Counted from the first letter of the stretch, positions 2,721 through 42,779 are shown. The stretch is DNA of 57,523 nucleotides from Patescibacteria group bacterium (GCA_043797545.1 JAZDPN010000073.1:1-57523), one strand, 5' to 3'. The notes: generated by a model not told the origin, from the sequence alone. Numbers and translations: made by a program.

Positions 2721-3761
2721 ATGAATTTAATTTTGAATGTCAACCAAAATTTTGCGAATTTTTTGGACGAGTCGCGGCGCGACATTTGGCGCTACGCGAA
2801 AATTTTGAGCGATTCGAAAATTGTGAATTTTGTCGACCCGCTGCAAAAAGATTTCACGAAAATCGAGCGAATAGGGGATTTTTGGGTGAAACGGGAAGAC
2901 GAGAGCGCAGTCGGCTCACACAAATTTCGTGCACTCGCGTTCCAAATTTCCCAACTTCTAGAAGCGAAAATCGACCGTGCTGTCCTCTCAAGCTCTGGTA
3001 ATGCTGCAATCGCGGCCTCGCAAATCTTGCCAGAAAATACGAATTTGAAGCTCTTTGTGTTTTTGTCGAAGAAGACACCACCCGCCAAGTTGGCCGGGCT
3101 GAAATTTTCGAAAAACCTTGTTCCGATCCTCTCCGAGCGCCCATTGCGGATGGCGAAATATGCCGCGAAACACTTTGATTTAAGAGATTTACGTCCGTCA
3201 GTCGATCCTAACGCTGCTGTTGGTTTTTGCTCGCTCGGCTTCGAGATTTTCGAGCAAAAACCAGCTATTGAGAATATTTTCAGCTTCGCGACGAGCTTCG
3301 CGAGCGTCCGCGGCATCGCCGAGGCGTTTAAGTTTTTAGTCAAAATCGGTGCTCGGCAAAAAATGCCGAAGATTTTCGCGGTCACCTCGAGTGGAAGGCT
3401 GGCTGGCGAGTTGAGCAGGCAACGAGTAGACACGAGTAGACAAGCAAAAGTTGTCCAGTGGACAGAAGTAGACACAAGTGGACAACGAGTAGCGAAGTCC
3501 GCCGAAGCCTCGGCGAAGGCGGAACAGCTGGTAAATATCTCTGATGCAGAAATTTTGGCGACTCGTCAGAAACTGCCCGAGCTGAAAACTTCGAATGAAG
3601 GTTTGGCGAGTCTCGCCGCCGCCACGAAAATCAAACCGCAAGGGGAGACTTTGGTGATTTTGACGGGACGAGCTTGGCCGGACAAAAATGTTGATCTGGA
3701 TAAATTTGAAGAAGCTGACAATTTTGCAGAAGCTGATAAAATGGTCGCTCGTCATGGCTAA
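2721..3761 (+). CDS. PLP-dependent enzyme, fold type II (TrpB/ThrC/cysteine-synthase-like)
   Basis: Contains the lysine motif ESAVGSHKFRA, the SSSGNAAIAAS segment, and a glycine-poor TSSG loop. Carries repeat copy C in frame. The ATG at 2721 lies 13 bp from the divergent lysW-like start. Confidence 0.6.
   Translation: MNLILNVNQNFANFLDESRRDIWRYAKILSDSKIVNFVDPLQKDFTKIERIGDFWVKREDESAVGSHKFRALAFQISQLLEAKIDRAVLSSSGNAAIAASQILPENTNLKLFVFLSKKTPPAKLAGLKFSKNLVPILSERPLRMAKYAAKHFDLRDLRPSVDPNAAVGFCSLGFEIFEQKPAIENIFSFATSFASVRGIAEAFKFLVKIGARQKMPKIFAVTSSGRLAGELSRQRVDTSRQAKVVQWTEVDTSGQRVAKSAEASAKAEQLVNISDAEILATRQKLPELKTSNEGLASLAAATKIKPQGETLVILTGRAWPDKNVDLDKFEEADNFAEADKMVARHG
3425..3527. repeat. Composite repeat copy C (heptamer array, TGTCCAGTGGACA palindrome, hairpin TCCGCCGAAGCCTCGGCGAAGGCGGA)
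   Basis: GTAGACA occurs at 3426, 3436 and 3468, and GTGGACA variants are also present. The hairpin at 3498-3523 differs from 1478-1503 at 2 nt. Translated as SRQRVDTSRQAKVVQWTEVDTSGQRVAKSAEASAKAEQ. Confidence 0.9.
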
Positions 3762-4791
3762 TCTCCCCCGCAAAACGATTCATCTAGTCTCGCCTGACCC
3801 GCGCAAAATCGAGGGGTTGGAGCTGGCGTGGCCGCATTTCAAAATCTTCGTCTCGAAAATGAGTCCAGCGCTGCGCAAGGCCGAAAGAGCTGGCGCTGAA
3901 ATCGTGAATTTGAAGCTGCCAAAAATCAAGACTACGAGCGATTTATTGGTCGAATTAATCGGCCGGAAATTGGTGCGCAAGGGGAACCGGGTTTTGGTTT
4001 TCAAAAACCTGCCGAAAATCGAGCGGCTCGCCGCGAAACACAAATTCGAAATCCTAATGCCCGGATCGAGCTTTTTGAATTTGCTCGAAGACAAAATCAA
4101 CTTCGTGGATTTTTGTCACGAATTCGCGCTGCCGATTTTGCCGACGACGATTCGCGAGCTAAATCTCGTGCGCTTTCTCGAACCGGTCGTGATTCAGACG
4201 CGACGCGGACACGCCGGTGAGTCGACTTTTTTTATCCGCTCGCCCAAAGAGCTGGACAATTTGAAACGCAAAATAGGGGACTGGCCGGTCAAAATCACGC
4301 CGCTCAAAAAACTGCCTACTTTCACGCTCGATTTTTGTGTCACTGCGAACGGGATTTACGCGACGCAGCCGTTTTTCCAAATCACGGGCGATCCGAAATT
4401 GAATCCGCTGCCAGGCGGGACGGGCGGAATTGATTTCGACATCGCGGCGAAATTGTCGGACGCGACGAAAGGACGCATCGGCGCGCTCGTCGAGCTCGTC
4501 GGCGCAGCTTTGGAAAAAATCGGCTACCGCGGAATCGCGGGAATCGATTTCCTCGTCGATGACGCCAGCTCGAAAATTTGGCTGCTCGAGCTCAATCCGC
4601 GGCTGCTGAGCAATCTCGGTTTCGTGACACGGAAACAAGTCGAGGCGGGGGAGATTCCCCTTTTACAAATCCATCTTTTGGAATTTTTGGGTGAGGATTT
4701 ACGGAAATTCGATGCGCCAAAATTGAGCCGCGTGAATTCGGGAAGATTTGAAAATCCGCACCCGGACGCGCGGATGTTGATCGAAATTTAG
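3754..4791 (+). CDS. ATP-grasp family ligase
   Basis: The C-terminal GYRGIAGIDFLVDDASSKIWLLELNPRL is a typical ATP-grasp Mg/ATP motif. The ATG at 3754 overlaps the stop of the PLP gene (ATGGCTAA). Confidence 0.65.
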   Translation: MANLPRKTIHLVSPDPRKIEGLELAWPHFKIFVSKMSPALRKAERAGAEIVNLKLPKIKTTSDLLVELIGRKLVRKGNRVLVFKNLPKIERLAAKHKFEILMPGSSFLNLLEDKINFVDFCHEFALPILPTTIRELNLVRFLEPVVIQTRRGHAGESTFFIRSPKELDNLKRKIGDWPVKITPLKKLPTFTLDFCVTANGIYATQPFFQITGDPKLNPLPGGTGGIDFDIAAKLSDATKGRIGALVELVGAALEKIGYRGIAGIDFLVDDASSKIWLLELNPRLLSNLGFVTRKQVEAGEIPLLQIHLLEFLGEDLRKFDAPKLSRVNSGRFENPHPDARMLIEI

Positions 4792-4799
4792 TTTTTGGA

Positions 4800-5336
4800 A
4801 TGAATGAACTCGACAAAAATCGCAAAATTTTGCACGAGACTTTCGAGTTGGGGATTTTGGTAAAAGGGATCGATGGTATTTTGGAAGTCATCGGCGGGGC
4901 GCTTTTGCTTTTGCTCCAGCCGGCGCAAATCAATTCGCTAATTGTCTGGCTGACGCAACACGAACTCGCGCAAGACTCGCACGATTTGCTCGCAAATTAC
5001 CTCGTGAAATTGGGGAGTAATCTTTCGCTCGACGCGCAAGTTTTTGGCGCGATTTATCTGCTGATTCACGGAGTGATCAAAGTCGCGCTGATTTTGGGTT
5101 TGTGGAAAAAGAAATTAATCGCGTATCCGCTCGCGATTATTTTTCTCGCGCTTTTTATCGTTTATCAAATCTACAGATATGTTCAACAGCCCGCGCTGTG
5201 GCTAGTTATTTTAAGCGTTTTCGACGCCGCGATGATCTTCCTGACTTGGGCTGAGTATCGACAAGTCAAAAAGAAATTGGTGTTTCTAGAACTTGAAGAT
5301 CGACAACAGAATACTGGCTTTTCAACCAGGGTTTGA
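4800..5336 (+). CDS. DUF2127-like integral membrane protein
   Basis: Four predicted TM helices. The overall pattern (LGILVKGIDGILEVIGGALLL ... WKKKLIAYPLAII ... IYRYV) resembles DUF2127. Confidence 0.5.
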   Translation: MNELDKNRKILHETFELGILVKGIDGILEVIGGALLLLLQPAQINSLIVWLTQHELAQDSHDLLANYLVKLGSNLSLDAQVFGAIYLLIHGVIKVALILGLWKKKLIAYPLAIIFLALFIVYQIYRYVQQPALWLVILSVFDAAMIFLTWAEYRQVKKKLVFLELEDRQQNTGFSTRV

Positions 5337-5571
5337 TATGGTAAATTCCGCCCCTTTAATTTTTAAGAGGTGGAAACATCCGGAAAAAAATCATCCTTGC
5401 TCGAAAGGATGCTGCCCAAAAAATTACTTTGGTTGGCGCAAGTAGTGCGAGAAGAAGTCGTGTACGCAATCATTAATTTTCGCGCAAAAAAGTCCAAGCC
5501 TCTTAAGCCTGGATTGCCCGGAGCTTTACATTTGACAGGAATTTCTTCGGTAAAGCCAAAGAAAAAAATAA

Positions 5572-6570
5572 TTACTTCTCGTTAATCGTCTCTTTCACTT
5601 TCACGCCGAAATGTCGGCCAGCGTCCTCGACGAACGCGAGAACCTCGTCGCCTTTTTTCAGTTTCGTGATCGAGATCGGTTTACCGTTCGGCTGAGTCAG
5701 GCGAATTGTTTCGGCATTTTGCATCACGAGCGAAATCGGCTTCGTGCCAACTTTGCCACGGACATGGAGCATCGGCCGTTTTTCGATTTTCGCGCGACCA
5801 ACCGCGAGTGGAAAAGTGTTGCCCTTTTCATCGCAAATCAAAATCTGTTTGCCCGCGCCAACTTCGTTGAGATAGCCGGTTTTGTTGTCTGGGAGACGCA
5901 CATACGCGTGCACCGCGCCGACATTCACGCGAAACGGACGCGGATCGCAATACGGACTTTCGACATTTTCGTTGAAAACGAGAAACATCGCCGAGCTGGA
6001 ATCTCCCGCGAGAATTCCCTGTCCGGGAGTGAGAATCGCGGTCGTGTCGACACACACGCGGTCGGCGACACCGACCGGCTCGGTCGACTCAATCTTCGCG
6101 CGAACGAGCTGCAATTTTTCGTTGTTCGCCTCACGGACGACTTTTCCCGTTGCGACGATCTCGGCGGGTTTCGCGGTTTCGAGGAGGATTCCATCCGCGC
6201 CGACTTCCATCGTCGTGAGCGCGAGTTTCGCTTTTTGCGCGTTCGGGACGGATTGAATGATTTTGGTGGTTTTGGAGATCAAATTCTCGAGCGGAATGAT
6301 CGACCAGTCCTTGTTGCGAATAATCTTCCAAACGCGCTCTCCGGCCGCGACAACGTCATTCTCGACCTCTTTCGCGGTGATCGTGAACTCGCGGACATCT
6401 TTGCCAATTTTCAAATCCCCGTCTTCGGCGACGATCTGGATCAGCCCCAATTCTTTCGCTTTCTTCGCAAAACCTTTCGGCAAAACAAGCGCGTCGGCTC
6501 CGGACTCGATCGCGGTCGTGACCAAATTTTTGTTCCATTTCGGGATGGAAACCCAAAAAAGTTTTTTCAT
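5572..6570 (-). CDS. 3-dehydroquinate synthase II (archaeal-type DHQS, AroB-prime)-like
   Basis: N-terminus KKLFWVSIPKWNKNLVTTAIESGADALVL, later VHAYV and ETIRL segments, and a length of about 330 aa fit my recollection of the PF01959 family. Assigned from memory only. Confidence 0.5.
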   Translation of the reverse strand: MKKLFWVSIPKWNKNLVTTAIESGADALVLPKGFAKKAKELGLIQIVAEDGDLKIGKDVREFTITAKEVENDVVAAGERVWKIIRNKDWSIIPLENLISKTTKIIQSVPNAQKAKLALTTMEVGADGILLETAKPAEIVATGKVVREANNEKLQLVRAKIESTEPVGVADRVCVDTTAILTPGQGILAGDSSSAMFLVFNENVESPYCDPRPFRVNVGAVHAYVRLPDNKTGYLNEVGAGKQILICDEKGNTFPLAVGRAKIEKRPMLHVRGKVGTKPISLVMQNAETIRLTQPNGKPISITKLKKGDEVLAFVEDAGRHFGVKVKETINEK

Positions 6571-6638
6571 AAATGAATTAGGACTCGGAAATTTTAGCAT
6601 CTCTTGAATTTGAGGGGGAGTGCGCTAAACTCGTCGGG

Positions 6639-7208
6639 ATGCAAATTTCTTACTTTGGCCAGCTCGGCTTTCTTTTGAAAGGATCGGACGCCTCGGTCGC
6701 TCTGGCTCTGCCTGCCGACAAAATCGGGGAAGCCGAAATCGTGATCACCGCGACCGAAGATGAGGTCATCAAGGCTAGCAGCAAACAAACTGTTTTCGAT
6801 TGGCCGGGAGAATACGAATCCAAGGGCGTGAGCGTGGCTCTGATTCCTGTCGGCAAAGACAAACCTTCCCGTATCGCCAAAGTTATCATTGACGGAATCG
6901 CGCTAGTCCATCTCGACGGAGTGAGCGAACCGCTAACCGAAAAGGAAGAAGAAAAGATCGGGAATGTTGATTTGCTTTTAATTTCGATTGGCAAAAATGC
7001 CACTCTCGACGCCAAGCAAATTAAAAATACCATCGAAGCGCTTGAGCCGAAAATCGTAATTCCGATGAATTTCGCGGACGGCGAGGAAAAAGAATTCGCG
7101 AAACAGCTCGGTTTCGGCGAGGCCGAAGCGGAAAACGATTTGAAATTGAAAGCGAGCAGTCTGCCGTCTGACCGGATGGAGCTCAAAATTTTGAGGTCGA
7201 GGAAATAG
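6639..7208 (+). CDS. UPF0173/MBL-fold hydrolase-like protein lacking the HxHxDH metal motif
   Basis: MQISYFGQLGFLLKG..., PGEYESKGV, VDLLLISIG and PKIVIPMNF align with the family pattern. The position of the His motif reads EIVITATEDE. Confidence 0.45.
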   Translation: MQISYFGQLGFLLKGSDASVALALPADKIGEAEIVITATEDEVIKASSKQTVFDWPGEYESKGVSVALIPVGKDKPSRIAKVIIDGIALVHLDGVSEPLTEKEEEKIGNVDLLLISIGKNATLDAKQIKNTIEALEPKIVIPMNFADGEEKEFAKQLGFGEAEAENDLKLKASSLPSDRMELKILRSRK

Positions 7209-7296
7209 GGAGTGGGTGAAGATTTTTAACCTACTCTAAAATTCACAAGTGTTTTTGCGTTGCACATTACACATTGATAATTAATAATTGATTCAC

Positions 7297-7371
7297 GGCC
7301 CCGTAGTTCAATGGATAGAACAATTCCGTCCTAAGGAAGAAATGTAGGTTCGATTCCTGCCGGGGCCACCA
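7297..7371 (+). tRNA. tRNA-Arg (anticodon CCT), CCA encoded
   Basis: Hand-folded cloverleaf: acceptor GGCCCCG/CGGGGCC, D stem GTTC/GAAC, anticodon loop GTCCTAA, T arm GTAGG-TTCGATT-CCTGC. Confidence 0.85.
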
Positions 7372-7378
7372 AAATGTT

Positions 7379-7403
7379 CTCCGCTGCAAGCGGAGGTTAT
7401 TTT
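7379..7403 (+). terminator. Intrinsic terminator after tRNA-Arg
   Basis: Stem CTCCGC/GCGGAG with loop TGCAA, followed by GTTATTTT. Confidence 0.6.
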
Positions 7404-7532
7404 GGTGATTGCGGTGGGTGAGAAATACAAAAGCTCGTGCTTTGTTTTTCGAAAAACATTTCGGCGCGCGCCGCCACAAAGTGGCCCCTTCGGGGCGAAA
7501 TAATTTAAAATTCGCACGCGCTCGCAGCGAAT

Positions 7533-7555
7533 TTCGATTCCTGTCGGGGCCACCA
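7533..7555 (+). repeat. Direct copy of the 3' 23 nt of tRNA-Arg(CCT)
   Basis: TTCGATTCCTGTCGGGGCCACCA versus 7349-7371 TTCGATTCCTGCCGGGGCCACCA (22 of 23). The upstream sequence cannot form a T stem, so this is not a second tRNA. Confidence 0.9.
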
Positions 7556-7556
7556 A

Positions 7557-9032
7557 TTAAAAATTCAATTCGCGAATCGCCTGCCAGCGCCCAACCGACC
7601 AAATCGGACCTCGAGTAATTGTTTGAATTTGGGTAAAAAGTTTTTGCAACTGCGAATCAGTCAGTAAATTTTTATTTTGTGAAAGCGAATCGAGATAGTC
7701 GGTCGGCAGCTCGCGCGCGAAATGCCCGATACGCCAATTCGGCGTGGCGGGAAGGCGCGCGAGAAATGCATCAGTGAGCGCATATTCATCGATGATCACG
7801 CAATCACGTGGCGCAAGAAATCCGTAAATGCCGACATTTGCGAACGATCGAATGCCGTGACATTCGCCCTGGTTTTTCGGCGCCCAAGAGTGATTTTCGA
7901 TACCGCCGAGACGAATCATCGCGAACAAAGAATTTTCTGATTCGAAAAATTCGCGCTCATCCGCGATGCCGAAATCGTTGATTGTTTTTGCCGCGATCGG
8001 ACTGCCCGAAAAATTAATTCCCCAGCCGACAACCGCGAACAGCAAAATAATTTTGGCGAATTTTTTGAGCTGAACAAGGTCGGGGATTTGTCCGAGCAAA
8101 ATTACCGAGCCGAAAAAAAGTGGGGCGAGGAAACGACCGGACATGAAGTCGCCGCCGATTTTGAGAATATAAATTAGATACAAACACAGTCCCGCCGCGA
8201 GGCCGAGCAGTTTTTTCGAGCGAGAAACGAGCGACCAAACGAACGCAGCGAAAATCGTCGCGAGCGTGAGCGGATCGCGAATGAAAGAGTCGATTAAATA
8301 TTTGCCGCCCTGCGCGAGCAAAGCGAGCGGCGCGATTCCGGTCGCGAGTTTCGCGTAAAAAGTATTTGGGAAAGGAAAACCGAAATAAATCAGCGCGAAA
8401 AATTCCCACAGAATGAGTGGCGTGTAGCCGAGCAAAATTTGACCGAACGCTTTTGCTTTGTGCGGCGCGGCGAAAAATTCCCAGAGCAAGACCGGAACGA
8501 AAAGCAAAATCGTGTCGAGGCGATTGACCGTGGCGAGTGCGGCGACGAAGGAAAGCGCAAGCAGTTTTCGCGGCGAATCTTTTTGGAAAAAAATGAAAAC
8601 GAAAAGCGCGAACAAAAGATTGGTCAGCGGATTTTCGAGGCCGGAAGTCGCGAAATCGAGAAAAGCGTGCGAAAAAAACAGAAGCGCGAGTACGAAAATT
8701 TTGGCGAAGTCGCGCGAGATTAATTTGCGCAATACGAGCGCGAGCGCGGCGCAGCTCGTCAAAAACGAGACGCTCAAAGTCGTGAAGTACGCTTCGCGGG
8801 TGAGGAAATAAAACGGCGTGAGCAGAAATAACCAAAGCGGGTGAGTGAAAACTTGGACACGCTCGACGACATTCCAGCGCAAGCCGAAACCGTGCACGAA
8901 GTTGTCGATCACGCGCAAGGTAATAAATGCGTCGTCGGAGATCCACGCTCGCGCGACGAGACGGACAAGTAAAAACCCGAGCAAAATTCCGATCCCGATT
9001 CGCAGCCAAGTTCGTTTTTTGAGTGCGTTCAT
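7557..9032 (-). CDS. GT-C fold membrane glycosyltransferase (ArnT/PMT/arabinofuranosyltransferase-like)
   Basis: About 12 TM helices and an N-terminal loop motif WISDDAFITLR typical of GT-C enzymes. Confidence 0.55.
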   Translation of the reverse strand: MNALKKRTWLRIGIGILLGFLLVRLVARAWISDDAFITLRVIDNFVHGFGLRWNVVERVQVFTHPLWLFLLTPFYFLTREAYFTTLSVSFLTSCAALALVLRKLISRDFAKIFVLALLFFSHAFLDFATSGLENPLTNLLFALFVFIFFQKDSPRKLLALSFVAALATVNRLDTILLFVPVLLWEFFAAPHKAKAFGQILLGYTPLILWEFFALIYFGFPFPNTFYAKLATGIAPLALLAQGGKYLIDSFIRDPLTLATIFAAFVWSLVSRSKKLLGLAAGLCLYLIYILKIGGDFMSGRFLAPLFFGSVILLGQIPDLVQLKKFAKIILLFAVVGWGINFSGSPIAAKTINDFGIADEREFFESENSLFAMIRLGGIENHSWAPKNQGECHGIRSFANVGIYGFLAPRDCVIIDEYALTDAFLARLPATPNWRIGHFARELPTDYLDSLSQNKNLLTDSQLQKLFTQIQTITRGPIWSVGRWQAIRELNF

Positions 9033-9060
9033 CGCGAAAATTTTACGCTAAAATCGCGCC

Positions 9061-9543
9061 GTGAAAATTGCGCTTATTTCAGATTCGCACGGCGCGCTCG
9101 ATCGACTCGAGGAAGTTTTGCACAATTTCGACACGGCTGGGATTCGCGAAATCGTGCACGCGGGGGATTTCGCGCTTGGAGAAATCGTGGAACTTTTGTC
9201 TAATTTTCCACAGTTGAGTTTCCGGATCGCACGGGGAAACTGCGATGTTGATACTGAGAAAATTTTGGCAATTGCGAATTTACCGAATGTCGAACTCGAG
9301 GAAATTTTGGAGTTCGAGCTCGGCGGACGGCGCATCGCGGTCGCGCATCGGATTCGAGATTTAGCCAATTCAGACGCGCCAATCTTGATTTCTGGACACA
9401 CGCATATTCCGAGCGCGAAAGCGGTGAATGGAAAATTATTTTTGAATCCGGGCTCGCTGATGGATGACGGCGGCTATTTCATTTTGGATTTGGCGAATTT
9501 AATTGTTGAGCGCAAGCTTTTTTCTGACAAAGCTCTGGCTTAA
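9061..9543 (+). CDS. YfcE/MJ0936-family metallophosphoesterase
   Basis: Motifs ISDSHG, HAGDF, GNCD and SGHTH. GTG start. Confidence 0.75.
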   Translation: MKIALISDSHGALDRLEEVLHNFDTAGIREIVHAGDFALGEIVELLSNFPQLSFRIARGNCDVDTEKILAIANLPNVELEEILEFELGGRRIAVAHRIRDLANSDAPILISGHTHIPSAKAVNGKLFLNPGSLMDDGGYFILDLANLIVERKLFSDKALA

Positions 9544-9567
9544 AATTGGGCTGCGCTATTTGGAAAC

Positions 9568-10083
9568 ATGGACCGAATCGAAGTTCACAAAACGATCGCC
9601 ATCGTCACTATCAAGCTAATGATTTTGCAGCTGTTTTTTGCCTTGGTATATTTGGCGACATCTTTGATTAGTGATTCTGTTGATCTATACAACAACGGCA
9701 CTTTTATGAATCTAATCGCTTACGACAGTCTGACTTTTATAATTATTGCTTTGGTGCATTTGGCAATCACTTCGTATATTTTTTTGCAGTGGACGATGGA
9801 AAAATACATTCTCCTGCCCGACAAAATCCGCCATCAGTGGGGGATTCTTTTGCGGCAGACCAATTCTTGGGACATTAGCAATATCGAAACTGGCTATATC
9901 ACCGAAAGCGTAGTCGCGCGGCTTTTTGGTTATGGCACGATTACCTTTCACAGCCCGACTTTGGAAACGCGCGTTGTTTTGCGCGATGTTCCCTCGCCTT
10001 CTTTGGTCACGAATTACATTGAGAAAAATTTGGCTTTGCTTGGTAAATCGCCAATTAAGTATTTGAAAGCTGATTCTAAATAA
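9568..10083 (+). CDS. Membrane protein with a bacterial PH (YdbS/YdbT-like) domain
   Basis: Two N-terminal TM helices, then a WDISNIETGYITESVVARLFGYGTITFHS pattern. Confidence 0.45.
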   Translation: MDRIEVHKTIAIVTIKLMILQLFFALVYLATSLISDSVDLYNNGTFMNLIAYDSLTFIIIALVHLAITSYIFLQWTMEKYILLPDKIRHQWGILLRQTNSWDISNIETGYITESVVARLFGYGTITFHSPTLETRVVLRDVPSPSLVTNYIEKNLALLGKSPIKYLKADSK

Positions 10084-10142
10084 AAAATAATGTTGCATTT
10101 AGCTAACTTTGAGTTAGAATTAGCTCACTTTAATTTTTAAAA

Positions 10143-10523
10143 ATGCAGTACAAAAGATATCGCTCGCTCAAAATCGGACTTGTGATGCTACTCGCTGCGA
10201 CTGTCGGTGGCTTCGTCAGTCAGGGAAATTTTGTGATTCCGCTGGTCGCTTTTGCGATCGCCGCAGGAACAATTTTTCTAGTCAGTCGTCACGTTGATTC
10301 CGTTCAAAATGATGAGCGCATCGAAAAAATCGGCGGCAAAGCGGCGCGCTGGATACTCGCGATTTTTGCAATCGGAGGCGCGATCGCGAGCATCGTCCTC
10401 ACCGCGCTCGCCAAAGATAATCCGATTTATCAAATTCCGGCCTATATTTTTTCGGGTCTAGTTTGGTTTGTCTTGGTTGGACATCTGGTTTTGTTTTATT
10501 ATTTCAATCGCAAAGGCGAATGA
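10143..10523 (+). CDS. DUF2178-like membrane protein
   Basis: Four TM helices. Translationally coupled (ATGA) to a small XRE regulator, which is the usual DUF2178 context. Confidence 0.4.
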
Positions 10524-10714
10524 AAAACCGGATCAAAATTTTTCGCGCACAGTTTGATTTGACACAGAACGCACTCGCGGAAAAAGTCGGCGTGCGTCGC
10601 GAGACGATCGTTTTTCTCGAACAAGGAAAATACAATCCCTCGCTCGAGCTCGCTTTTCGCATCGCGAAAGTTTTTGGCGAACCGCTGGAAAATGTTTTTA
10701 TTTGGGAAAAATAA
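10520..10714 (+). CDS. XRE-family HTH transcriptional regulator (YozG-like)
   Basis: The sequence [48 protein letters not shown] is a canonical Cro/C1 HTH. Confidence 0.8.
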
Positions 10715-10717
10715 ATC

Positions 10718-10740
10718 TGGCGGAGGGAGAGAGATTCGAA
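10718..10740 (-). repeat. Direct copy of the 3' 23 nt of tRNA-Ser(GGA)
   Basis: TGGCGGAGGGAGAGAGATTCGAA versus 10881-10903 TGGCGGAGGGAGGGGGATTCGAA (21 of 23), in the same orientation as the tRNA. Confidence 0.9.
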
Positions 10741-10880
10741 GCTGGCTTCAAGTTCTGTTTTTAATTTGAGATTGTCGGCGGCGCGCGCCGAAATGGTTCG
10801 CGAAATACGGAACGCGAGCTACCAGGTGTCTCACCCACTCCCCGCGCCAAAAAATTCGCCTGTGCGGGGGCAATTTTTCG

Positions 10881-10970
10881 TGGCGGAGGGAGGGGGATTC
10901 GAACCCCCGAGGCAGTTGCCCGCCTACCCGCTTTCCAAGCGAGCGCACTCGGCCACTATGCGATCCCTCC
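10881..10970 (-). tRNA. tRNA-Ser (anticodon GGA), long variable arm, CCA encoded
   Basis: The reverse complement folds with acceptor GGAGGGA/TCCCTCC, anticodon loop TTGGAAA, an extra arm GGCGGGCAACTGCC, and T arm GGGGG-TTCGAAT-CCCCC. Confidence 0.85.
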
Positions 10971-11293: not shown

Positions 11294-11920
11294 ATGTTTT
11301 TACTCAACCTTTCGCCTTTCGAAATCCTGTCCTGGGTGGTCGGCTTCTTGGTCGCGCTCTCGGTCCATGAGGCTGCTCACGCTGCTGCTGCGAATTACCT
11401 CGGTGATCCAACCGCGAAATTTGCAGGCCGGATGAGCCTGAATCCCTTGAGACACCTTGATCCGGTTGGAACTTTGTTTTTAATTTTCGCAGGTTTCGGC
11501 TGGGGCCGACCAGTGCCTGTCAATCCGGCCAATTTCGCGAATCCACGCGCCGGAGAGATTTTAACTTCGCTAGCTGGGCCGCTCGCGAACTTCGTAATAG
11601 CGCTCGCCCTGGCGATTCCTCACAATCTGCTTGACCCCGGGTCGCTCGGCTTTCTTTTTGTGCAGAATGTAATGTTTGTGAATATAGTTTTGATGGTTTT
11701 CAATCTCCTGCCTATCCCGCCACTGGATGGAGGCGGTGTCGCGGTGAATTTCTTACCGATTGAGCTGGGCGAGAAATACCGCCGCAACGGTCCGATTTTG
11801 CTATTTGCTTTGATTGCGTTCGATTGGGTCTTTAAAACAAGTCTTTTGTGGGGCATCCTCGGAAAATTGGTCAATATCGTGTTTGTAGCGATTAACCTAA
11901 GCACAACATTTGGGGGCTAG
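11294..11920 (+). CDS. Site-2 protease family (peptidase M50) membrane metalloprotease
   Basis: HEAAH zinc motif and NLLPIPPLDGG motif within a polytopic membrane protein. Confidence 0.8.
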   Translation: MFLLNLSPFEILSWVVGFLVALSVHEAAHAAAANYLGDPTAKFAGRMSLNPLRHLDPVGTLFLIFAGFGWGRPVPVNPANFANPRAGEILTSLAGPLANFVIALALAIPHNLLDPGSLGFLFVQNVMFVNIVLMVFNLLPIPPLDGGGVAVNFLPIELGEKYRRNGPILLFALIAFDWVFKTSLLWGILGKLVNIVFVAINLSTTFGG

Positions 11921-13144: not shown

Positions 13145-13189
13145 AAAAATCCGCCAATTTTAGCAGAAATATAAGCTAAAAACAATTCG

Positions 13190-13232
13190 TTTTATTTCAA
13201 ATACTCATCCCACGCCTTGATCGGCAACTCGA
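13190..13232. repeat. Direct repeat, left copy: duplicate of the last 13 codons, stop codon and 3 downstream nt of carB
   Basis: GTTTTATTTCAAATACTCATCCCACGCCTTGATCGGCAACTCGA matches 14560-14602 with one mismatch. Confidence 0.9.
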
Positions 13233-13280
13233 CTAACAATCCATCACTTTACTCGAACGTATTTCAATTTTTTATAAAAT

Positions 13281-13475
13281 ATGTTAAAATGCGCAGAAAC
13301 AAAAACTATGAAATCCAAACAAAAATCACTCCTGCCGCTTGCGGCTGAGATGCTGCAAACGCTCGACGCGGCACAAGAAAAAGAATTGGCACGCAAAAAA
13401 ATACTCGCGAAACGAACCGAGGAACTTTCTTCGCGAATCGAAGATTTCGAACAAACACAAAAACTTTTGGGTTAA
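13281..13475 (+). CDS. Small coiled-coil protein (64 aa), cassette gene 1
   Basis: ORF in an AT-rich segment. Its stop overlaps the next start (TAATG). Confidence 0.4.
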   Translation: MLKCAETKTMKSKQKSLLPLAAEMLQTLDAAQEKELARKKILAKRTEELSSRIEDFEQTQKLLG

Positions 13476-14560
13476 TGTCAATCGAAAACAAAGACCGACC
13501 ACCTGTTGCCAAAACAGAAACTGAGCTTGAGCGTTTAATGCCCGAGTACGCCGAAATGCGTGATGCGATTATTAATGTAGAGGTGGCCGCAAACAAAATG
13601 GAGCTGCAAAAAAGACAAGCCGACGATATTAACAATGAAATCGTTGATCGTCTGTCAACAATTAAAGTGAAAATAGATCAGCTCGCCAAAAAATATCCCG
13701 ACAACGATAGTCTGCGGATACTTATGGATATGTACGAAGATATTAGTCAGGATTTTATTTACAGTAGGAAAACTCGGGTTGACACAAGTTTGCAAAAAAG
13801 ATTGGCGGAAGTGCAAAAATCTGTCGTCGATGCTGGAATTACTACCGTTCCCTCGGAAAATATTGATAACCCGAAAACAAAAGAATTGGTCGCAAAGATG
13901 CAGCAACTCGGAATCCCGATTGAACGAGTCACAACTCGCCCAAACGCAGACCGAACTGTGATTCTGATAGTCTGGGCCCATCCCAATCCCGGGATGAATG
14001 AGGAAGTAAGAAAGGAGTTCGGCATCTTTGAAAGTCAAAACAAAGTTAATGATTATATTGCCAAATTATCTCAAGCTGGAATTTCAAATCATGTACTTAC
14101 CGAGGGAATTCCGGCCAATATAAGTCCTGAGCTTAAGGCAAAAGTCTTAGCTGAAATGGCCCAAAATGGGTTTCCGTTTATAAATTTAACAAATATTTCT
14201 ATTGAGGGTGTCGAAAACAAAGCTTTTTTGCTAAAAACAGCAACCGATTTAAGTTCAGCTAATTACCAAATCAGGGCAACTATCAACAATATAGTCATGG
14301 CTCACAACATCGAAAATTCTATGCGGTCTGGAGAGGTTTCGATCGCCGTCATGGGCGCGGCTCACGAATTTGAAATCGATCAGAGCGAACATCAATTGTC
14401 TTACTCGCAGGCCACCTCTTTCGAAGCTAATGCTAATGTGATTGTCATAAATACGGCAAGGGAGTTCTACGAAGCTACTCGCGACCCTAAAAAAATGGAG
14501 CTCATGAAGCAAGCAGCAGCCAATTTTCAGGCAGGGATTAAAGAACAGTTTTCGAAATAG
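13475..14560 (+). CDS. Hypothetical protein (361 aa), cassette gene 2
   Basis: Long AT-rich ORF with an N-terminal coiled coil. The C-terminal half carries VWAHPNP and VMGAAHEFE motifs. I can assign no family with confidence. Confidence 0.55.
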   Translation: MSIENKDRPPVAKTETELERLMPEYAEMRDAIINVEVAANKMELQKRQADDINNEIVDRLSTIKVKIDQLAKKYPDNDSLRILMDMYEDISQDFIYSRKTRVDTSLQKRLAEVQKSVVDAGITTVPSENIDNPKTKELVAKMQQLGIPIERVTTRPNADRTVILIVWAHPNPGMNEEVRKEFGIFESQNKVNDYIAKLSQAGISNHVLTEGIPANISPELKAKVLAEMAQNGFPFINLTNISIEGVENKAFLLKTATDLSSANYQIRATINNIVMAHNIENSMRSGEVSIAVMGAAHEFEIDQSEHQLSYSQATSFEANANVIVINTAREFYEATRDPKKMELMKQAAANFQAGIKEQFSK

Positions 14561-14602
14561 TTTTATTTCAAATACTCATCCCACGCCTTGATCGGCAGCT
14601 CG
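14560..14602. repeat. Direct repeat, right copy (functional 3' end of carB)
   Basis: See 13190-13232. Confidence 0.9.
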
Positions 14603-17600
14603 AGATCGCGATATTGCTCGAGCGAATCGACAACCAATTTCGCAACCTGCGGATTGACGAACAACGGAATGCCGAAGTCCGTCGCGCGGCGGCGAATCAG
14701 ATAGCCGTTCGTCATTTCCTCGGCTTGATAATTTTTCGGAATATTCACGACCATGCCAATTTGTTTTTGGGCAAAAAGGTCGAGGACGTTTGGCTTCTGC
14801 TTCTCGAGCGGAAAATGCACCAAAGTATTCGCCACACCGTTGTCGGTCAAAAAGCGAGAAGTGCCCGGCGTCGCGAAAAGTTTGAAACCCATCGCGATCA
14901 GTTTTTGCGCGGAGGGGAGGAAGGCCAATTTCGAATCAATCGATCCAGTCGAGATGAGAATATTTTTCTTCGGCAAACGGAAGCCGACCGCGATCTGCGC
15001 TTTGAGAAAAGCTTCGTGCAAATTCTCGCCGAAACACGCGACTTCGCCGGTCGACGCCATCTCGACGCCGAGCGTCGGATCCGCACCTTTGAGCCGCGAG
15101 AAAGAAAACTGCGCGGCTTTCACGCCGACGTGATTGAGGTCGAGAGTTTGGTAGTTTTGTTTCCGCCACGCTTTCGGCGCGACTTTGCCGAGCATCGCCT
15201 CGATCGCGATCGCGATGAAATTGTGCCCGGCAGTTTTGGAAACGAACGGGAACGAGCGGCTAGCTCGTAAATTTAACTCTATGACCGCGACACGATTTTC
15301 TTTCGCGAGAAATTGAATGTTGAATGGGCCAGTGATTTTGAGTTCCGCGGCCAATTTTTTCGCGATAATTTTGATGCGTTTAATCGTCTCGAGATAAGTT
15401 TTTTGCGGCGGCAAAACCAAAGTCGCGTCGCCCGAGTGGACGCCAGCATTTTCGACATGCTCGGAAACCGCGAAAATTACGAGCTTCCCGTCGGCGGCGA
15501 CTCCGTCGAAATCGATTTCGCGCGCGCCTTCTTCAAATTTCGAAATCACGACGGGCGCGTCGGTTGAAATTTTCGTGGCCTTGGCCAGATAATTTTGGAG
15601 CTGCTCGGCGGTGAACGCGACGGACATCGCCGCGCCGGAGAGAACATAACTCGGACGAACGAGCACCGGGTAGCCGACTTTTTTCGCGAATGACATCGCG
15701 TCAGAATTTTGGGTGAACTCGGACCACTGCGGTTGGTCGATCTCGAGCGAATCGCAAAGCTGCGAGAATTTTTCGCGCGACTCGGCGCGGTCGATCGAAA
15801 CCGGGGAAGTTCCGAAAATCGGAACTTTTTCCGCCGCCAATTTTCCGACGAGATTATTCGGAATTTGTCCGCCCGTCGAGACGACGACGCCTTTCGGTTT
15901 CGTGAAATCGAGAATGTCGAGGACGCGCTCGACGGAAAGCTCGTCGAAATAAAGTTGGTCGCAGGAGTCGTAATCCGTCGAAACAGTCTCGGGATTGTAA
16001 TTGATCATGATTGTCTCGAAACCGTTTTTCGCTAAAGTTTGGACGGCGGAGACACAGCACCAATCGAATTCGACGGACGAACCAATGCAGTACGCGCCGC
16101 TTCCCAAAACAACCGCGCGGGGCCGTAGCCCGCCGAAGCTCGAAGAGCGAAGGCCGGGTTTTTTGGAGAATTTAATTTCGTCGCTCGTATCGCCGTGGTA
16201 GGTCAAATAAAGATAATTTGTTTTCGCGGGAAACTCCGCAGCAAAAGTGTCGATTTTTTTGACGACCGGGAGAATACCGAATTTTTTGCGGCGTTTGCGA
16301 ATTTCCAATTCTCCGACGCCCGCACGCCACGCGATTTGCGAATCGGAAAAGCCCAATTTTTTTGCACGGGAAAACTCGTCTTTCGACAATTTTCCTTTTT
16401 GGGCTTTGAGAATGTCGCGCTCGAAGTCGGCGATGTTTTTGCATTTTTCGAGAAACCACTCGTCGATGCCGGTCAGTTTTTTAATTTTTGCGACCGACCA
16501 ACCGTCGCGCAGCGCGCGCGCGATCGCGAAAATTCTTTCCGGCGTCGGCTTGGAAATAACTTTTTCGAGCGAGTCGAATTTGAAATTGGCGTGACTGAAA
16601 CCGTACGCGCCGACCTGCAACATGCGCAGCGCTTTTTGCAAAACTTCCTCGAACGAGCGACCGATCGCCATCACTTCGCCGACCGATTTCATTTCGCTGC
16701 CAATCTCGGCGGAAACTTTACGGAATTTTTGGAGATCCCAGCGCGGGATTTTGAGAACGAGATAATCGAGCGCCGGTTCGAAACACGCGGTCGTGTTGCC
16801 GGTCACCGCATTCGGGACTTCGTCGAGTCTTTTGCCGAGCGCGAGTTTCGCAGCGACATGCGCGAGCGGATAGCCGGTCGCTTTCGACGCGAGCGCGGAG
16901 GAGCGCGACAAGCGCGCATTTACTTCGATCACACGATAATCAATTTTGTGCGGATCGGTCGGATTCGGATGCAGCGCGTATTGAATATTGCATTCGCCGA
17001 CGATGCCGAGGTGTCGAATCACGCGAATCCCGATTTCGCGGAGCGCGTGATATTCGTAATTGTTCAAAGTTTGCGACGGCGCGACGACGATCGACTCGCC
17101 GGTGTGAATGCCGAGCGGATCGAAATTTTCCATGTTACAAACCGTCAAACAGGTGTCGGCGGAATCGCGAACGACTTCGTATTCGATTTCTTTCCAGCCG
17201 CGCAAATCTTCTTCGATCAAAACTTGCGGCGACGCCGAGAACGCGACTTCGAGTAATTTTTTCAGCTCGGCAGGATTTTGAGCGAAGCCCGAGCCTTTGC
17301 CACCGAGCGCGTATGCTGCGCGAACAATCACCGGGAAACCAATTTTTTTGGCGGCGGCGATTCCTTCAGCTTCGTTGCGCACGGCTTGCGCACGCGCGGT
17401 CGTCACTCCAATTTCGTTTAATTTTTTGACGAAAAGTTCGCGGTCTTCGGTCGCCTCGATCGCAGAAATTTGCGTGCCGAGAACTCGAACTTTGTGTTTT
17501 TTGAAAACACCGCGCTTTTCCAGCTCAACTCCGCAATTGAGCGCGGTCTGACCACCGAAAGCTAGCAAAATTCCGTCCGGCTTTTCTTTTTCGATGATCC

Positions 17601-18501: not shown

Positions 18502-19956
18502 ATGAGCTATGGAACCCCAAATCTCGAACATCCCCGCTTGACGCGACCGCTTACCGAGTCGCGACAAGACCCTGAAGCCCGCAGAAATCCCGAGGCTGAA
18601 AAGTCTGTCGGCAAACAGCTAGAAGCTCTGAAAGAAGAGGTCGAATCGACTAAACGGGCGCAGGAGTTCGTGGTGAAAAACAGTTTGGATTTGGAAATCG
18701 AAACGCGCATCGGCGCGCTGAGCGCAGCGCCAGATTTCCCTTTTCGCAAAAATATTTACGAACGCATGATGTTCGGACAAAAGTGCATTCTCAAAAATAA
18801 TTTAGTGGCCGGACTGAGAAAGGCCATCGAAAAAAATCGGAAGATTGATGATGCCGAGCTGGAAAAAATTGCCCGGGAGACCATCGAGAATTGGCTGGGC
18901 GAATTGAAAAAACTCGACCGGAATGGTGACAAAAAGATAACCTACACTGAGCTCATTCCAAAAACCAAAGAGGCGAAAGAATTTATCGAGCGCGTTTTCG
19001 TGACCAATGAGTTTTTTGTTGAAATGGAAAACAGTCCGCTCTTCCAAGGTGAGCCGAAAGTCGACGAGAACGTTCCCAAAAAAAGTGCTTTCGTAAAAGA
19101 TTATGTTTCGCGGTTTGCAAAAAGCTTGATTCGGGTCGGAAAAGACGGCCAGACCGTCGAAGCTGTTCCTGGTAGCGGCCTGCAGCTGGGCCAGCTTTTG
19201 CAATCCATCAGCCTAAGCGTAGTCGGAGGGAAATTCTTAACCAATAAGGATTTCGGGAAAGCTTGGGAGGAGCTCAAAACTCAAGATGCGAACGTAGCCA
19301 AAGTTTTCGCCGAAGGCGAAAAGCAAAATGCGCAAGAGAAATTTGAAAAGATGCTCGAAAAAACGAGTGAGCAGATTCGTGCGATGCGAATGGGTGCAGA
19401 TGCCGATCAGCGAAAACTCTTGCAACTAGAAGCGTCCAATCCGCACGGCTTCACCTTGCGAAAGTTTGGCGACATGACCAGCATCATAATGTATTACGGC
19501 TCAAATCTGCTTTTCGCCACGATCGGCGTGAATGCTGTCTTGTCGGGATTCAATCCTGAGGCCATGCTGAAAAATCCAGTCATGTGGGCGATGGCCGCCG
19601 GAATTTTGGCAGCCAAAAAACACCTCAATCCCGAATTCATGAGCGGCACGCCGCCGATTCAGAAAGTCGAACAAAACGAACTGAAAGAGCGCTTCGCGAA
19701 AGCTGCGCCCGCAGTCCAGGAATGGCTGACAAAATTTTCGAAAGGTGACCTCGGGCCGAAAGAGAAAATAGGCAAGCTATTAGCTGAAGAAGGTCGGTAC
19801 GAAATTAATTCAGCCGAAATCGAGAATTTCGTGAAGCCGGAAAATCGACCCGCATCGAAAGTCCTAGCTAATTCGTCTGAGGCGCGCGAACTATTTTTAT
19901 TTTTCCAAGCCTGCCAACAGCGCGACTTTAATCCTAAAAAACTAGCCGATGCCTAA
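18502..19956 (+). CDS. Hypothetical protein with a canonical EF-hand loop and two C-terminal TM helices
   Basis: DRNGDKKITYTE (aa 139-150) fits the 12-residue EF-hand loop. Hydrophobic segments lie at about aa 335-375. Confidence 0.55.
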   Translation: MSYGTPNLEHPRLTRPLTESRQDPEARRNPEAEKSVGKQLEALKEEVESTKRAQEFVVKNSLDLEIETRIGALSAAPDFPFRKNIYERMMFGQKCILKNNLVAGLRKAIEKNRKIDDAELEKIARETIENWLGELKKLDRNGDKKITYTELIPKTKEAKEFIERVFVTNEFFVEMENSPLFQGEPKVDENVPKKSAFVKDYVSRFAKSLIRVGKDGQTVEAVPGSGLQLGQLLQSISLSVVGGKFLTNKDFGKAWEELKTQDANVAKVFAEGEKQNAQEKFEKMLEKTSEQIRAMRMGADADQRKLLQLEASNPHGFTLRKFGDMTSIIMYYGSNLLFATIGVNAVLSGFNPEAMLKNPVMWAMAAGILAAKKHLNPEFMSGTPPIQKVEQNELKERFAKAAPAVQEWLTKFSKGDLGPKEKIGKLLAEEGRYEINSAEIENFVKPENRPASKVLANSSEARELFLFFQACQQRDFNPKKLADA

Positions 19957-42399: not shown

Positions 42400-42417
42400 T
42401 GGTGCGCCCGGCAGGAT
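42400..42417 (-). repeat. Direct copy of the 3' 18 nt of tRNA-Arg(TCG)
   Basis: TGGTGCGCCCGGCAGGAT is identical to 42593-42610, in the same orientation. Confidence 0.9.
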
Positions 42418-42555
42418 AAATTCGCCATGGGCGAATTGGGCTGCTGCGTCGCTCGCGCACGACAAACAGCTACGCTGTTGTCGCGACTCGCTATCCTCGC
42501 AGAACGAACCTCGCTTGCTTCGCTGCGCGGCAAATTTTCACCACGCCCGACAACC

Positions 42556-42582
42556 ACGCAAAACCTGCCCGCTTCGCGGGTC
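42556..42582 (-). terminator. Intrinsic terminator after tRNA-Arg(TCG)
   Basis: On the minus strand: CCCGC-GAA-GCGGG followed by CAGGTTTT. Confidence 0.5.
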
Positions 42583-42592
42583 AGAACTTGCG

Positions 42593-42669
42593 TGGTGCGC
42601 CCGGCAGGATTCGAACCTGCAACCCCCGGTTCCGAAGACCAGTGCTCTATCCAGTTGAGCCACGGGCGC
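42593..42669 (-). tRNA. tRNA-Arg (anticodon TCG), CCA encoded
   Basis: The reverse complement folds with acceptor GCGCCCG/CGGGCGC, D arm GCTCAACTGGATAGAGC, anticodon loop CTTCGGA, and T arm GCAGG-TTCGAAT-CCTGC. Confidence 0.85.
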
Positions 42670-42779
42670 GCGCCGCGATTTTAGCATTTTTACTGGGAAA
42701 TAATCCTTGATTTTGGCAAGTCTTCGTGATTGAGGAAAATGCTTAAAAATGCTAAAATGTCCGGATTTAAAAGCCAAAA

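Follow-up and report, generated by a model that had tools for sequence, protein, structure and literature searches.

How does a tRNA gene come to be followed, after a gene-less spacer, by a second copy of its own 3' end? The question is raised by tRNA-Arg(CCT) in a 57,523-nt stretch of DNA (the window), a chromosomal piece of a Patescibacteria lineage that carries a 5S rRNA gene, dnaN, secA and biosynthetic genes. A first-pass annotation had read the arrangement as the attL/attR signature of site-specific integration into a tRNA 3' end. The parts of the locus are the following.

7297-7371, plus strand: tRNA-Arg(CCT), complete, with encoded CCA (ARAGORN; Rfam tRNA, 61.7 bits)
7349-7371, plus strand: proximal repeat TTCGATTCCTGCCGGGGCCACCA, equal to T54-A76 of the tRNA (T loop, T-stem 3' strand, acceptor 3' strand and ACCA)
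7372-7408, plus strand: left module, N4-GTTCT-GC hairpin-GGTTATTTTGGTG, resembling an intrinsic terminator (terminator scan, fold)
7414-7475, plus strand: conserved core, with the box GTGGGTGAGA at 7414-7423, a covarying hairpin and the 19-mer CATTTCGGCGCGCGCCGCC at 7457-7475 (inverted repeat, alignment, RNAalifold)
7480-7500, plus strand: inverted partial copy of the tRNA 3' end, AGTGGCCCCTTCGGGGCGAAA (RNAduplex)
7497-7532, plus strand: right module, an A/T-rich block AAATAATTTAAAATT and a hairpin ATTCGC...GCGAAT abutting the repeat (from the sequence; homologous in other copies)
7533-7555, plus strand: distal repeat TTCGATTCCTGTCGGGGCCACCA, a copy of T54-A76 matching at 22/23 positions

The repeat, which the annotation had reported with one mismatch, coincides exactly with T54-A76; the one C>T change by which the distal copy departs from the proximal copy lies in the T-stem 3' strand. 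By an arithmetic estimate, a 22/23 match within 200 nt has a chance probability of ~1e-10. A script that scored each tRNA 3' end for its best downstream copy gave 20 at tRNA-Arg(CCT), and filled sites scored 16-20 compared with 3-5 at element-free tRNAs. The distal repeat stops 1 nt short of the stop codon of a convergent glycosyltransferase-like gene (7557-9032, minus strand). It does not belong to a second tRNA gene, an option that the annotation had named: ARAGORN calls three tRNAs only, Rfam reports none at the distal copy, and neither ARAGORN nor cmscan (E ≤ 10) finds a cloverleaf around this or the other distal copies described below. A 12-nt match, GGGAGTGGGTGA, upstream of tRNA-Arg(CCT) was set aside as compatible with chance (E = 0.45); it forms a separate terminator hairpin.

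The inserted segment is 161 bp long and non-coding, as the annotation had held, and it opens with the terminator-like hairpin expected from that account (7378-7396, followed by a T run; terminator scan). In the predicted fold, the outer stem of the left module pairs with C72-A76 and the next 4 nt. The left module is present in four other copies, with stem changes that are compensatory by direct reading of the sequences and not by a pair count, the MAFFT alignment being out of structural register. The core hairpin is closed by UGAGA/UUUCG and carries three compensatory pairs (RNAalifold), with compensatory A-U>G-C changes and with G-U pairs that are valid on the tRNA-sense strand only. The 19-mer CATTTCGGCGCGCGCCGCC includes a 12-nt perfect palindrome, and on the minus strand the core palindrome together with a T run reaches a terminator-like score (terminator scan). 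The inverted partial copy at 7480-7500 sits in a 23-nt stretch that is missing from the tRNA-Ser paralogue (alignment gap), and it can pair with the distal repeat at -28.4 kcal/mol by RNAduplex, compared with -18.9 ± 2.5 kcal/mol for shuffled sequences, none of 300 shuffles being as good. The search for a general internal partner of this kind gave a significant RNAduplex result for the Arg(CCT) element only, so a fold of the copy onto an internal anti-sequence in all elements was no longer entertained.

The conserved core attributed to the spacer was found again within the window, the segment 7400-7475 recurring at 10777-10852 on the opposite strand (inverted-repeat search). This second occurrence lies behind a tRNA-Ser(GGA), and a third related segment lies behind a tRNA-Arg(TCG).

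10881-10970, minus strand: tRNA-Ser(GGA), host of the second member (ARAGORN, Rfam)
10741-10880, minus strand: second member, interior of 140 nt, colinear with the Arg(CCT) element (alignment, z = 11.1)
10718-10740, minus strand: distal copy TTCGAATCTCTCTCCCTCCGCCA of tRNA-Ser T54-A76, 21/23 (repeat search, script)
42593-42669, minus strand: tRNA-Arg(TCG), host of the third member (ARAGORN, Rfam)
42418-42592, minus strand: third member, interior of 175 nt with a longer middle (left hairpin, GTGGTGA box and right hairpin homologous)
42400-42417, minus strand: distal copy ATCCTGCCGGGCGCACCA of tRNA-Arg(TCG) A59-A76, 18/18

All three tRNAs of the window (3/3) thus precede a related non-coding insert of 140-175 nt that ends in a copy of the tRNA's own 3' end (18-23 nt), and each of the three elements occupies the gap up to a convergent gene. 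The 5S rRNA gene has no comparable 3' copy. Both differences in the tRNA-Ser(GGA) distal copy are C>T changes in the T-stem 3' strand, and the Arg(TCG) copy extends to 21 nt from C56 if a 4-nt insertion in its T-loop part is allowed. When aligned, the Arg(CCT) and Ser interiors are colinear, differ by one 23-nt indel and have an identical 19-mer in common. Read in the tRNA sense, the common plan begins with 4-9 nt, GTTCT, a GC hairpin and (A/G)GTT with a T run, which together form an intrinsic terminator. It continues with a G-rich stretch, the box (A/G)TGGGTGAGA and a variable part, with a GC palindrome in two copies, and it ends with an A/T-rich block that follows the pattern AAATT(T)AAAA, a small hairpin and the copy of T54-A76 of the host tRNA. 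The terminator stems vary in sequence yet always pair (CUCCGC/GCGGAG, CUCCCG/CGGGAG, CUG(A)CCCGC/GCGGGCAG and CUUUUG/CAGAAG).

Such a set of inserts could have arisen if ordinary large prophages or islands had decayed independently, as scars or CIMEs, to ~150 bp at each tRNA. Integrated elements are usually marked by tRNA 3' fragments (PMC9897764), att-flanked ICE/IME remnants without an integrase are known as CIMEs (PMC5704250), and the region between two of the tRNAs is hypervariable. We nevertheless consider this origin very unlikely, because independent deletions would not share end-points, and here 3/3 interiors are colinear, homologous and of similar length, with the single 23-nt indel between two of them. 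The documented tRNA fragments, moreover, usually flank 9-121 kb (PMC9897764), and one of the present copies is near-identical between genomes that are ~78% identical overall.

To place the inserts among relatives, we located syntenic loci through homologues of the neighbouring M50 protease and NadB. The relatives are labelled Gracilibacteria, Peribacteraceae or 'Patescibacteria group' by their sources, and the lineage is Peribacteria-like. The annotation had proposed looking for an empty site, and we found it: tRNA-Arg(CCT) is filled in the window, whereas unrelated sequence lies directly 3' of it in the syntenic loci of L129 and L137 and also in L139 and L004. The empty sites in L129 and L137 establish that the Arg(CCT) spacer was inserted and did not belong to the locus ancestrally. 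At tRNA-Ser, the site is empty in L129, L135 and L142, filled in L137 by a recognisable element whose tRNA copy has two extra C, and occupied in L139 by a decayed element whose copy matches at 16/23 positions, with C>T accounting for 6/7 changes and CCA now reading CTA. A carB tree interleaves filled and empty genomes, L139 being sister to the empty L142 and L137 sister to the empty L135. The flank 3' of the distal copy (GATTTATT, GATTAAAT) resembles the tGATAAATT found directly after the tRNA in an empty genome. Two sites that appear empty, tRNA-Ser in L001 and tRNA-Arg in L139, carry a tandem footprint in which CCA is followed immediately by the tRNA's own T54-C61. Four independent assemblies end at most 2 nt from the tRNA-Ser 3' end, as expected if the junction is polymorphic in populations, and the two convergent tRNAs are separated by 0.75-4.8 kb, with gene content that differs among relatives.

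The interiors of the elements do not sort by host tRNA. Similarity between elements at different tRNAs (z = 11.1 for window Arg(CCT) and window Ser; z = 11.0 for L137 Ser and window Arg(TCG)) is as high as that between elements at the same tRNA (z = 8.4-8.7 for window Ser against L137 and L139; z = 3.7 for L137 Ser against L139 Ser). The Arg(CCT) spacer with its repeat is thus an insertion that belongs to a family, whose sites have been gained or lost between relatives and whose members carry no enzyme gene. That the family is a mobile one is argued by the copies of their own 3' ends at all window tRNAs, by the interchangeable interiors and by presence that varies at orthologous sites, as well as by the flank match to an empty genome, the assembly breaks and the variable gene content between the tRNAs. 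The pattern among relatives fits a family spreading between tRNA genes, movement itself being something that we infer.

The five copies (three in the window, with those of L137 and L139 at tRNA-Ser) have well-defined edges. The duplication is 18-25 nt long, and its right edge is A76 in 4/5 copies, one further base matching at tRNA-Arg(CCT). In the three window copies and that of L137, the distal acceptor 3' strand and NCCA are unchanged and changes are confined to the T-stem/T-loop part; the stem-part substitutions in the distal copies are all C>T. The ends of the five copies have no terminal inverted repeats (TIRs) and no conserved termini in common.

One member stands apart in its conservation. 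In the closest relative, GCA_043799575.1 (L179), the carB protein is 94% identical and DNA overall ~75-79% identical to the window, but the Arg(TCG) element is identical at 190/193 positions (98.4%). The near-identical block begins at the distal A76, takes in the element and the tRNA, and reaches 110 nt beyond the tRNA on its upstream side, with flanks at 60-88% identity; the sequence immediately past the Arg(TCG) copy cannot be aligned with L179, and the distal A76 is the exact limit of the conservation. Of the three differences, one is at a bulged base of the terminator hairpin, one at a predicted-unpaired position and one at a hairpin-loop base. For the same pair of genomes, identity is 40-75% at four-fold degenerate sites in the flanking genes and 53-83% in other intergenic regions, and upstream of tRNA-Ser it vanishes within a few bases. 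Set against the four-fold sites, 190/193 indicates that the Arg(TCG) element is strongly constrained or was recently exchanged as a block, and either function or recent exchange argues against a passive, decaying scar. The three copies with an intact T-loop heptamer vary among relatives, whereas the Arg(TCG) copy, with its disrupted T-loop part, is kept in L179, the sole relative examined there, and it appears fixed or domesticated.

Conservation of this kind would be expected of a functional RNA co-transcribed with and linked to the tRNA, its mature 3' end mimicking the acceptor 3' strand and NCCA. Such an RNA could compete with or replace the proximal 3' end in the precursor, or it could be acted on by the enzymes that serve tRNA 3' ends; presence and absence among relatives would then reflect lineage-specific gain and loss of the RNA. 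Consistent with this, the block conserved in L179 stops precisely at the distal A76, its differences lie at unpaired positions in at least two of three cases (hairpin bulge, hairpin loop), and the acceptor strand and NCCA are intact in 4/5 distal copies. The C>T changes in the stem part would keep G-U pairing with the tRNA 5' strands, in whole-transcript folds the distal copies at Ser and Arg(TCG) do base-pair with the 5' strand of the tRNA, and the core hairpin has its compensatory pairs and its sense-strand G-U pairs. On the other side, several close relatives have no element behind the same tRNAs and L139 has one that is decayed, CCA included, and a terminator placed right after the tRNA should stop most transcription before the core. 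No Rfam family corresponds to it (Rfam 15, E ≤ 10, at the three loci, returned nothing besides the tRNAs), a significant internal partner for the distal repeat occurs at Arg(CCT) only, and covariation is thin, five or six sequences being all that is available. Conservation is equally high in the 110 nt that precede tRNA-Arg(TCG), outside the element, which fits recent block exchange as well as it fits selection. We regard a functional RNA as an unlikely explanation of the family.

If the elements move, the enzyme responsible would probably be encoded elsewhere than beside them. No integrase, transposase or reverse transcriptase was found near the three elements or among the scanned window ORFs (Pfam, PHROGs), and the gene tables of ~260 kb of related loci list no recombinase, reverse transcriptase or Cas1. 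Likewise, neither gene remnants of an ICE, IME or phage nor a full-length relative of the elements came to light. The 19-mer CATTTCGGCGCGCGCCGCC gave only chance matches, in GC-rich genomes, when searched in a genome collection, and the pattern GTGGGTGAGA-N8-AGCTCG-N9-13-TTTCG gave one chance match in metagenome data, on an actinobacterial-like contig with no tRNA. Two scans of viral sequences with core patterns returned chance matches only. The tRNA 3' 23-mers matched ordinary tRNAs or long att fragments in viral sequences, with no element modules, parent or attP, and in these ordinary att fragments identity reaches upstream into the T stem and variable arm. With blastn against phage and plasmid collections, only the tRNA-like part was matched. 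Neither Rfam nor the collections and literature searched yielded a description of this element family.

Integration that duplicates a gene 3' end does operate in this genome, as a different insertion in the window demonstrates. An enzyme-less insertion of ~1.3 kb is flanked by a 44-49-nt duplication of the carB 3' end and is absent from the closest relative; nothing ties this duplication to the end of an RNA, and it resembles ordinary att-type integration. A 361-aa ORF within it was considered as a trans-acting recombinase and rejected, since it has no Pfam or PHROG match and none of the expected motifs by eye.

We tentatively favour, as a plausible though not yet probable account, that the elements are miniature non-autonomous insertions of tRNA 3' ends, in effect bare att modules moved in trans by a T-loop integrase. 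This preference rests on the T-loop att geometry, on the existence of integrase-less CIMEs and on the carB insertion. In mycobacteriophage Ms6, the attP core of 26 nt spans the T loop to the tRNA 3' end, the 7-nt T loop being the probable site of exchange, and integration has been re-targeted to other tRNAs by editing the core (PMC1762012). The present repeat, which runs from the first T-loop base to A76, resembles such cores, and the observation that copies with an intact heptamer vary while the disrupted Arg(TCG) copy is retained also speaks for an integrase. With the 7-nt T loop as the place of exchange, a tyrosine integrase encoded elsewhere would recombine the element with the tRNA gene; the element would contribute the replacement tRNA 3' end and the terminator, forming attL, and the original 3' end would be displaced to the far side as attR. 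The 3' end of a new target might be gained indirectly, by integration at a secondary site and subsequent gene conversion. Movement at all, the enzyme, the direction of exchange and the way in which copies gain a new tRNA's 3' end are all steps that we infer. Of the attL/attR interpretation in the first-pass annotation, the T-loop-type geometry of the repeat, the small non-coding insert and the empty sites in relatives stand. What has to be given up is a single scar, since the insert is one member of a family, and the interpretation is further weakened by the lack of an integrase and of an inverted half-site and by an Arg(TCG) copy conserved far above neutral expectation.

Several observations weigh against an integrase. 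Besides the failure to see an integrase or other recombinase, the reconstructed att core lacks the inverted half-site expected of a tyrosine-recombinase core: the bases that adjoin the distal T-loop copy on its left (CGAAT, CCAGC, CTAGC) show no complementarity to the copied T-stem 3' strand. Identity breaks off abruptly at T54, unlike in ordinary att fragments. A new tRNA 3' end is needed for each change of target, which would have had to happen at least three times in the family; precise excision would not leave the tandem footprints of L001 and L139; and a circle of ~184 bp is a very small substrate for recombination.

An alternative is that each insertion makes the repeat anew from the resident tRNA, the element carrying no tRNA sequence and no classical integrase taking part. 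By one route, a reverse transcriptase would start at, or switch to, the CCA end of a mature tRNA and copy the processed 3' trailer RNA, and the cDNA, made up of tRNA, element and tRNA 3' end, would recombine into the tRNA gene. By another, a long-stagger integrase (casposase or Cas1-like), for which Cas1-type integration at tRNA 3' ends offers a precedent, would cut at 53/54 and after 76. Either would account for a copy that always matches the host tRNA though interiors interchange between tRNAs and genomes, for a right edge at or within one base of the mature 3' end A76, for an element that begins at +1 after CCA, where a processed trailer would begin, for the tandem footprints in L001 and at tRNA-Arg in L139, and for the missing inverted core half-site. 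A precedent is the reverse transcriptase of the Neurospora Mauriceville retroplasmid, which initiates cDNA at tRNA 3' ends (PMC9925561). However, no reverse transcriptase or Cas1 was found in any locus examined, the elements have no terminal inverted repeats or conserved termini, and the G-U pairs of the core hairpin and the terminator function both belong to the tRNA-sense strand. The genome's carB duplication has no RNA end as its anchor and looks instead like the work of an att-type integration, and we know of no target-made duplication of a tRNA end in bacteria, which also counts against such an origin. A repeat made in this way is, in our judgment, improbable. Taken together, the possibility that the repeats are made afresh from the resident tRNA (as a reverse-transcription product or by an unknown integrase anchored on the 3' end), that the elements are functional tRNA-linked RNAs, or both, is rather unlikely; either would be undescribed in bacteria. 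The readings are mutually compatible, since domestication of a mobile module is possible.

Repeated tRNA 3' ends are commonly taken as the edges of large islands or prophages, and here they bound a gene-less structured module of ~150 bp that is found at different tRNA genes, polymorphic between close relatives and, in one case, almost invariant. Should an integrase act on the modules in trans, they would represent an integrase-based counterpart of MITEs and a source of false 'island' calls and of assembly breaks at Patescibacteria tRNAs. A repeat generated from the target would imply a previously unknown insertion mechanism anchored on the tRNA CCA end, and a functional RNA would add a new class of tRNA-linked RNA, here in organisms whose RNA-processing machinery is minimal. 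In either case, reads across empty sites and circle junctions are predicted, and these can be checked in existing metagenome data.

Several known systems have features in common with the family. MITEs, Correia elements, RPE and REP/BIME sequences are miniature non-autonomous bacterial repeats. The present elements resemble them in size (100-200 bp), in being non-coding, structured and multi-copy, in lying between convergent genes and in being terminator-like; they differ in having no terminal inverted repeats and no short fixed duplication, in keeping strictly to tRNA 3' ends and in creating an 18-25 nt repeat of the target gene.

Casposons, which are 8-20 kb long, target tRNA 3' ends and duplicate 14-15 bp there; they encode Cas1 and PolB and have terminal inverted repeats. 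Casposon or Cas1-type integration is like the present case in its insertion at tRNA 3' ends and in a long duplication that regenerates the gene end. It is unlike it in that neither the casposon size nor Cas1 or PolB genes, terminal inverted repeats or a 14-15-bp target duplication is seen in the window, the duplication here being 18-25 nt.

In retroviruses, an 18-nt primer-binding site is copied from the primer tRNA. The order tRNA-CCA, insert and 18-23-nt tRNA-sense copy is the layout of a primer-linked minus-strand cDNA, as in retroviral and retroplasmid tRNA priming, and the junctions likewise lie at the mature CCA end. The present elements, though, are bacterial and chromosomal with no reverse transcriptase found, and the likeness is one of resemblance only.

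CIMEs are kilobases long, and each derives from a recognisable parent. They have in common with the present elements the attL/attR-like bounds, the lack of recombination and transfer genes and a presumed enzyme acting in trans, whereas the elements described here form a compact colinear family of ~150 bp with conserved modules of its own and no parent found.

The T-loop att sites of the Ms6 type differ from the present sites in that here the inserts are gene-less and 140-175 bp long, with no integrase found in 57 kb and no inverted half-site, and homologous inserts stand behind three different tRNAs. What the two have in common is a repeat from the T loop to the 3' end, an intact tRNA on one side and a displaced fragment on the other, an insert that is present or absent among relatives, and a core that can in principle be re-targeted.

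Contigs of related organisms, from four assemblies made independently, all stop at the 3′ junction of tRNA-Ser(GGA), each no more than 2 nt from the 3′ end of the tRNA. The tRNA-Ser(GGA) genes at these contig ends are as follows.

L133 (closest relative, GCA_043799575.1), 3-92
L134, 1-88
L136, 2-91
L138, 1-88

That the contigs of all four assemblies stop here suggests a junction polymorphic within populations, or a repeated one. The convergent genes tRNA-Arg(CCT) and tRNA-Ser enclose a hypervariable interval, which differs in length and in gene content.

L137 (related locus), 8736-9485: 0.75 kb, Metallophos only
Window, 7372-10880: 3.5 kb, glycosyltransferase-like, Metallophos, bPH_2, DUF2178 and HTH_3
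L129 (related locus), 4623-9451: 4.8 kb, genes different from those of the window and L137

At two sites where the element, the short non-coding insert 3′ of the tRNA, is missing, the tRNA's own T-loop sequence abuts the CCA (L001 9448-9471 and L139 103-110). The sequence after the CCA in L001 is ttcgaatcgttctcgcttggctca, which matches T54-A76 at 16 of 23 positions, and that of the L139 tRNA-Arg is TTCGATTC. The trailer in L142, downstream of 4007, contains TCGAGGGTTC, 10 nt that copy the T arm's 5′ side. All these tRNA-derived sequences may have been left by earlier events, as footprints or remnants.

Two of the elements share an identical 19-mer, within which falls a perfect palindrome.

Window 7462-7473: 12-nt palindrome CGGCGCGCGCCG
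Window 10779-10790: 12-nt palindrome CGGCGCGCGCCG

A T-rich run follows the palindrome in the Arg(CCT) copy on the strand opposite the tRNA, and by its score this arrangement is a predicted terminator of the convergent gene. Conservation is seen upstream of tRNA-Arg(TCG), where a block of 110 nt (window 42670-42790; L179, a second locus of the closest relative, 11721-11830) is 99% identical, as opposed to ~78% for the two genomes overall. The block reaches the start codon of a divergent gene for an fn3 and Big_1 surface protein, which is itself only 63% identical between the two.

The window contains two further sets of repeats.

222-254, 1433-1513 and 3411-3533: three copies of 33-67 nt, 82-97% identical
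21807-21953: degenerate tandem-like repeats of 45 nt in a 673-aa ORF (19949-21970), at its C-terminal end

The former, made up of AGTAGACA units followed by a hairpin, GTCCGCCGAAGCC..GGCGGAAC, lie in the stretch where three ORFs follow one another (NlpC/P60, Mur ligase and PALP). The latter encode a Pro/Ala/Gly/Thr-rich stretch of the ORF, which has no Pfam match.

The 3′ end of carB is duplicated in the window, the repeated unit taking in the final 12 codons with the stop codon and running a few bases past it.

13184-13232 and 14555-14603: direct repeats of 49 nt each, 94% identical
13233-14554: enclosed insertion of ~1.3 kb
13475-14560: 361-aa ORF inside the insertion, no match in Pfam or PHROG

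The insertion also holds a small ORF upstream of the 361-aa ORF. The ~1.3-kb segment is missing from the closest relative (L133), and the duplication is absent in all other relatives compared. This is a second enzyme-less insert in the window flanked by a duplicated gene 3′ end.

In the closest relative, a GIY-YIG gene of 83 aa (L133 95-346) is inserted between tRNA-Ser and rpmB, and in two other relatives a Y1 transposase gene adjoins the carB 3′ end.

L142, 5794-6261: Y1 transposase gene
L143, 1320-1910: Y1 transposase gene

Nuclease and transposase genes, the latter assigned to the IS200/IS605-like Y1 type by a faint match, therefore occupy the same hot spots.
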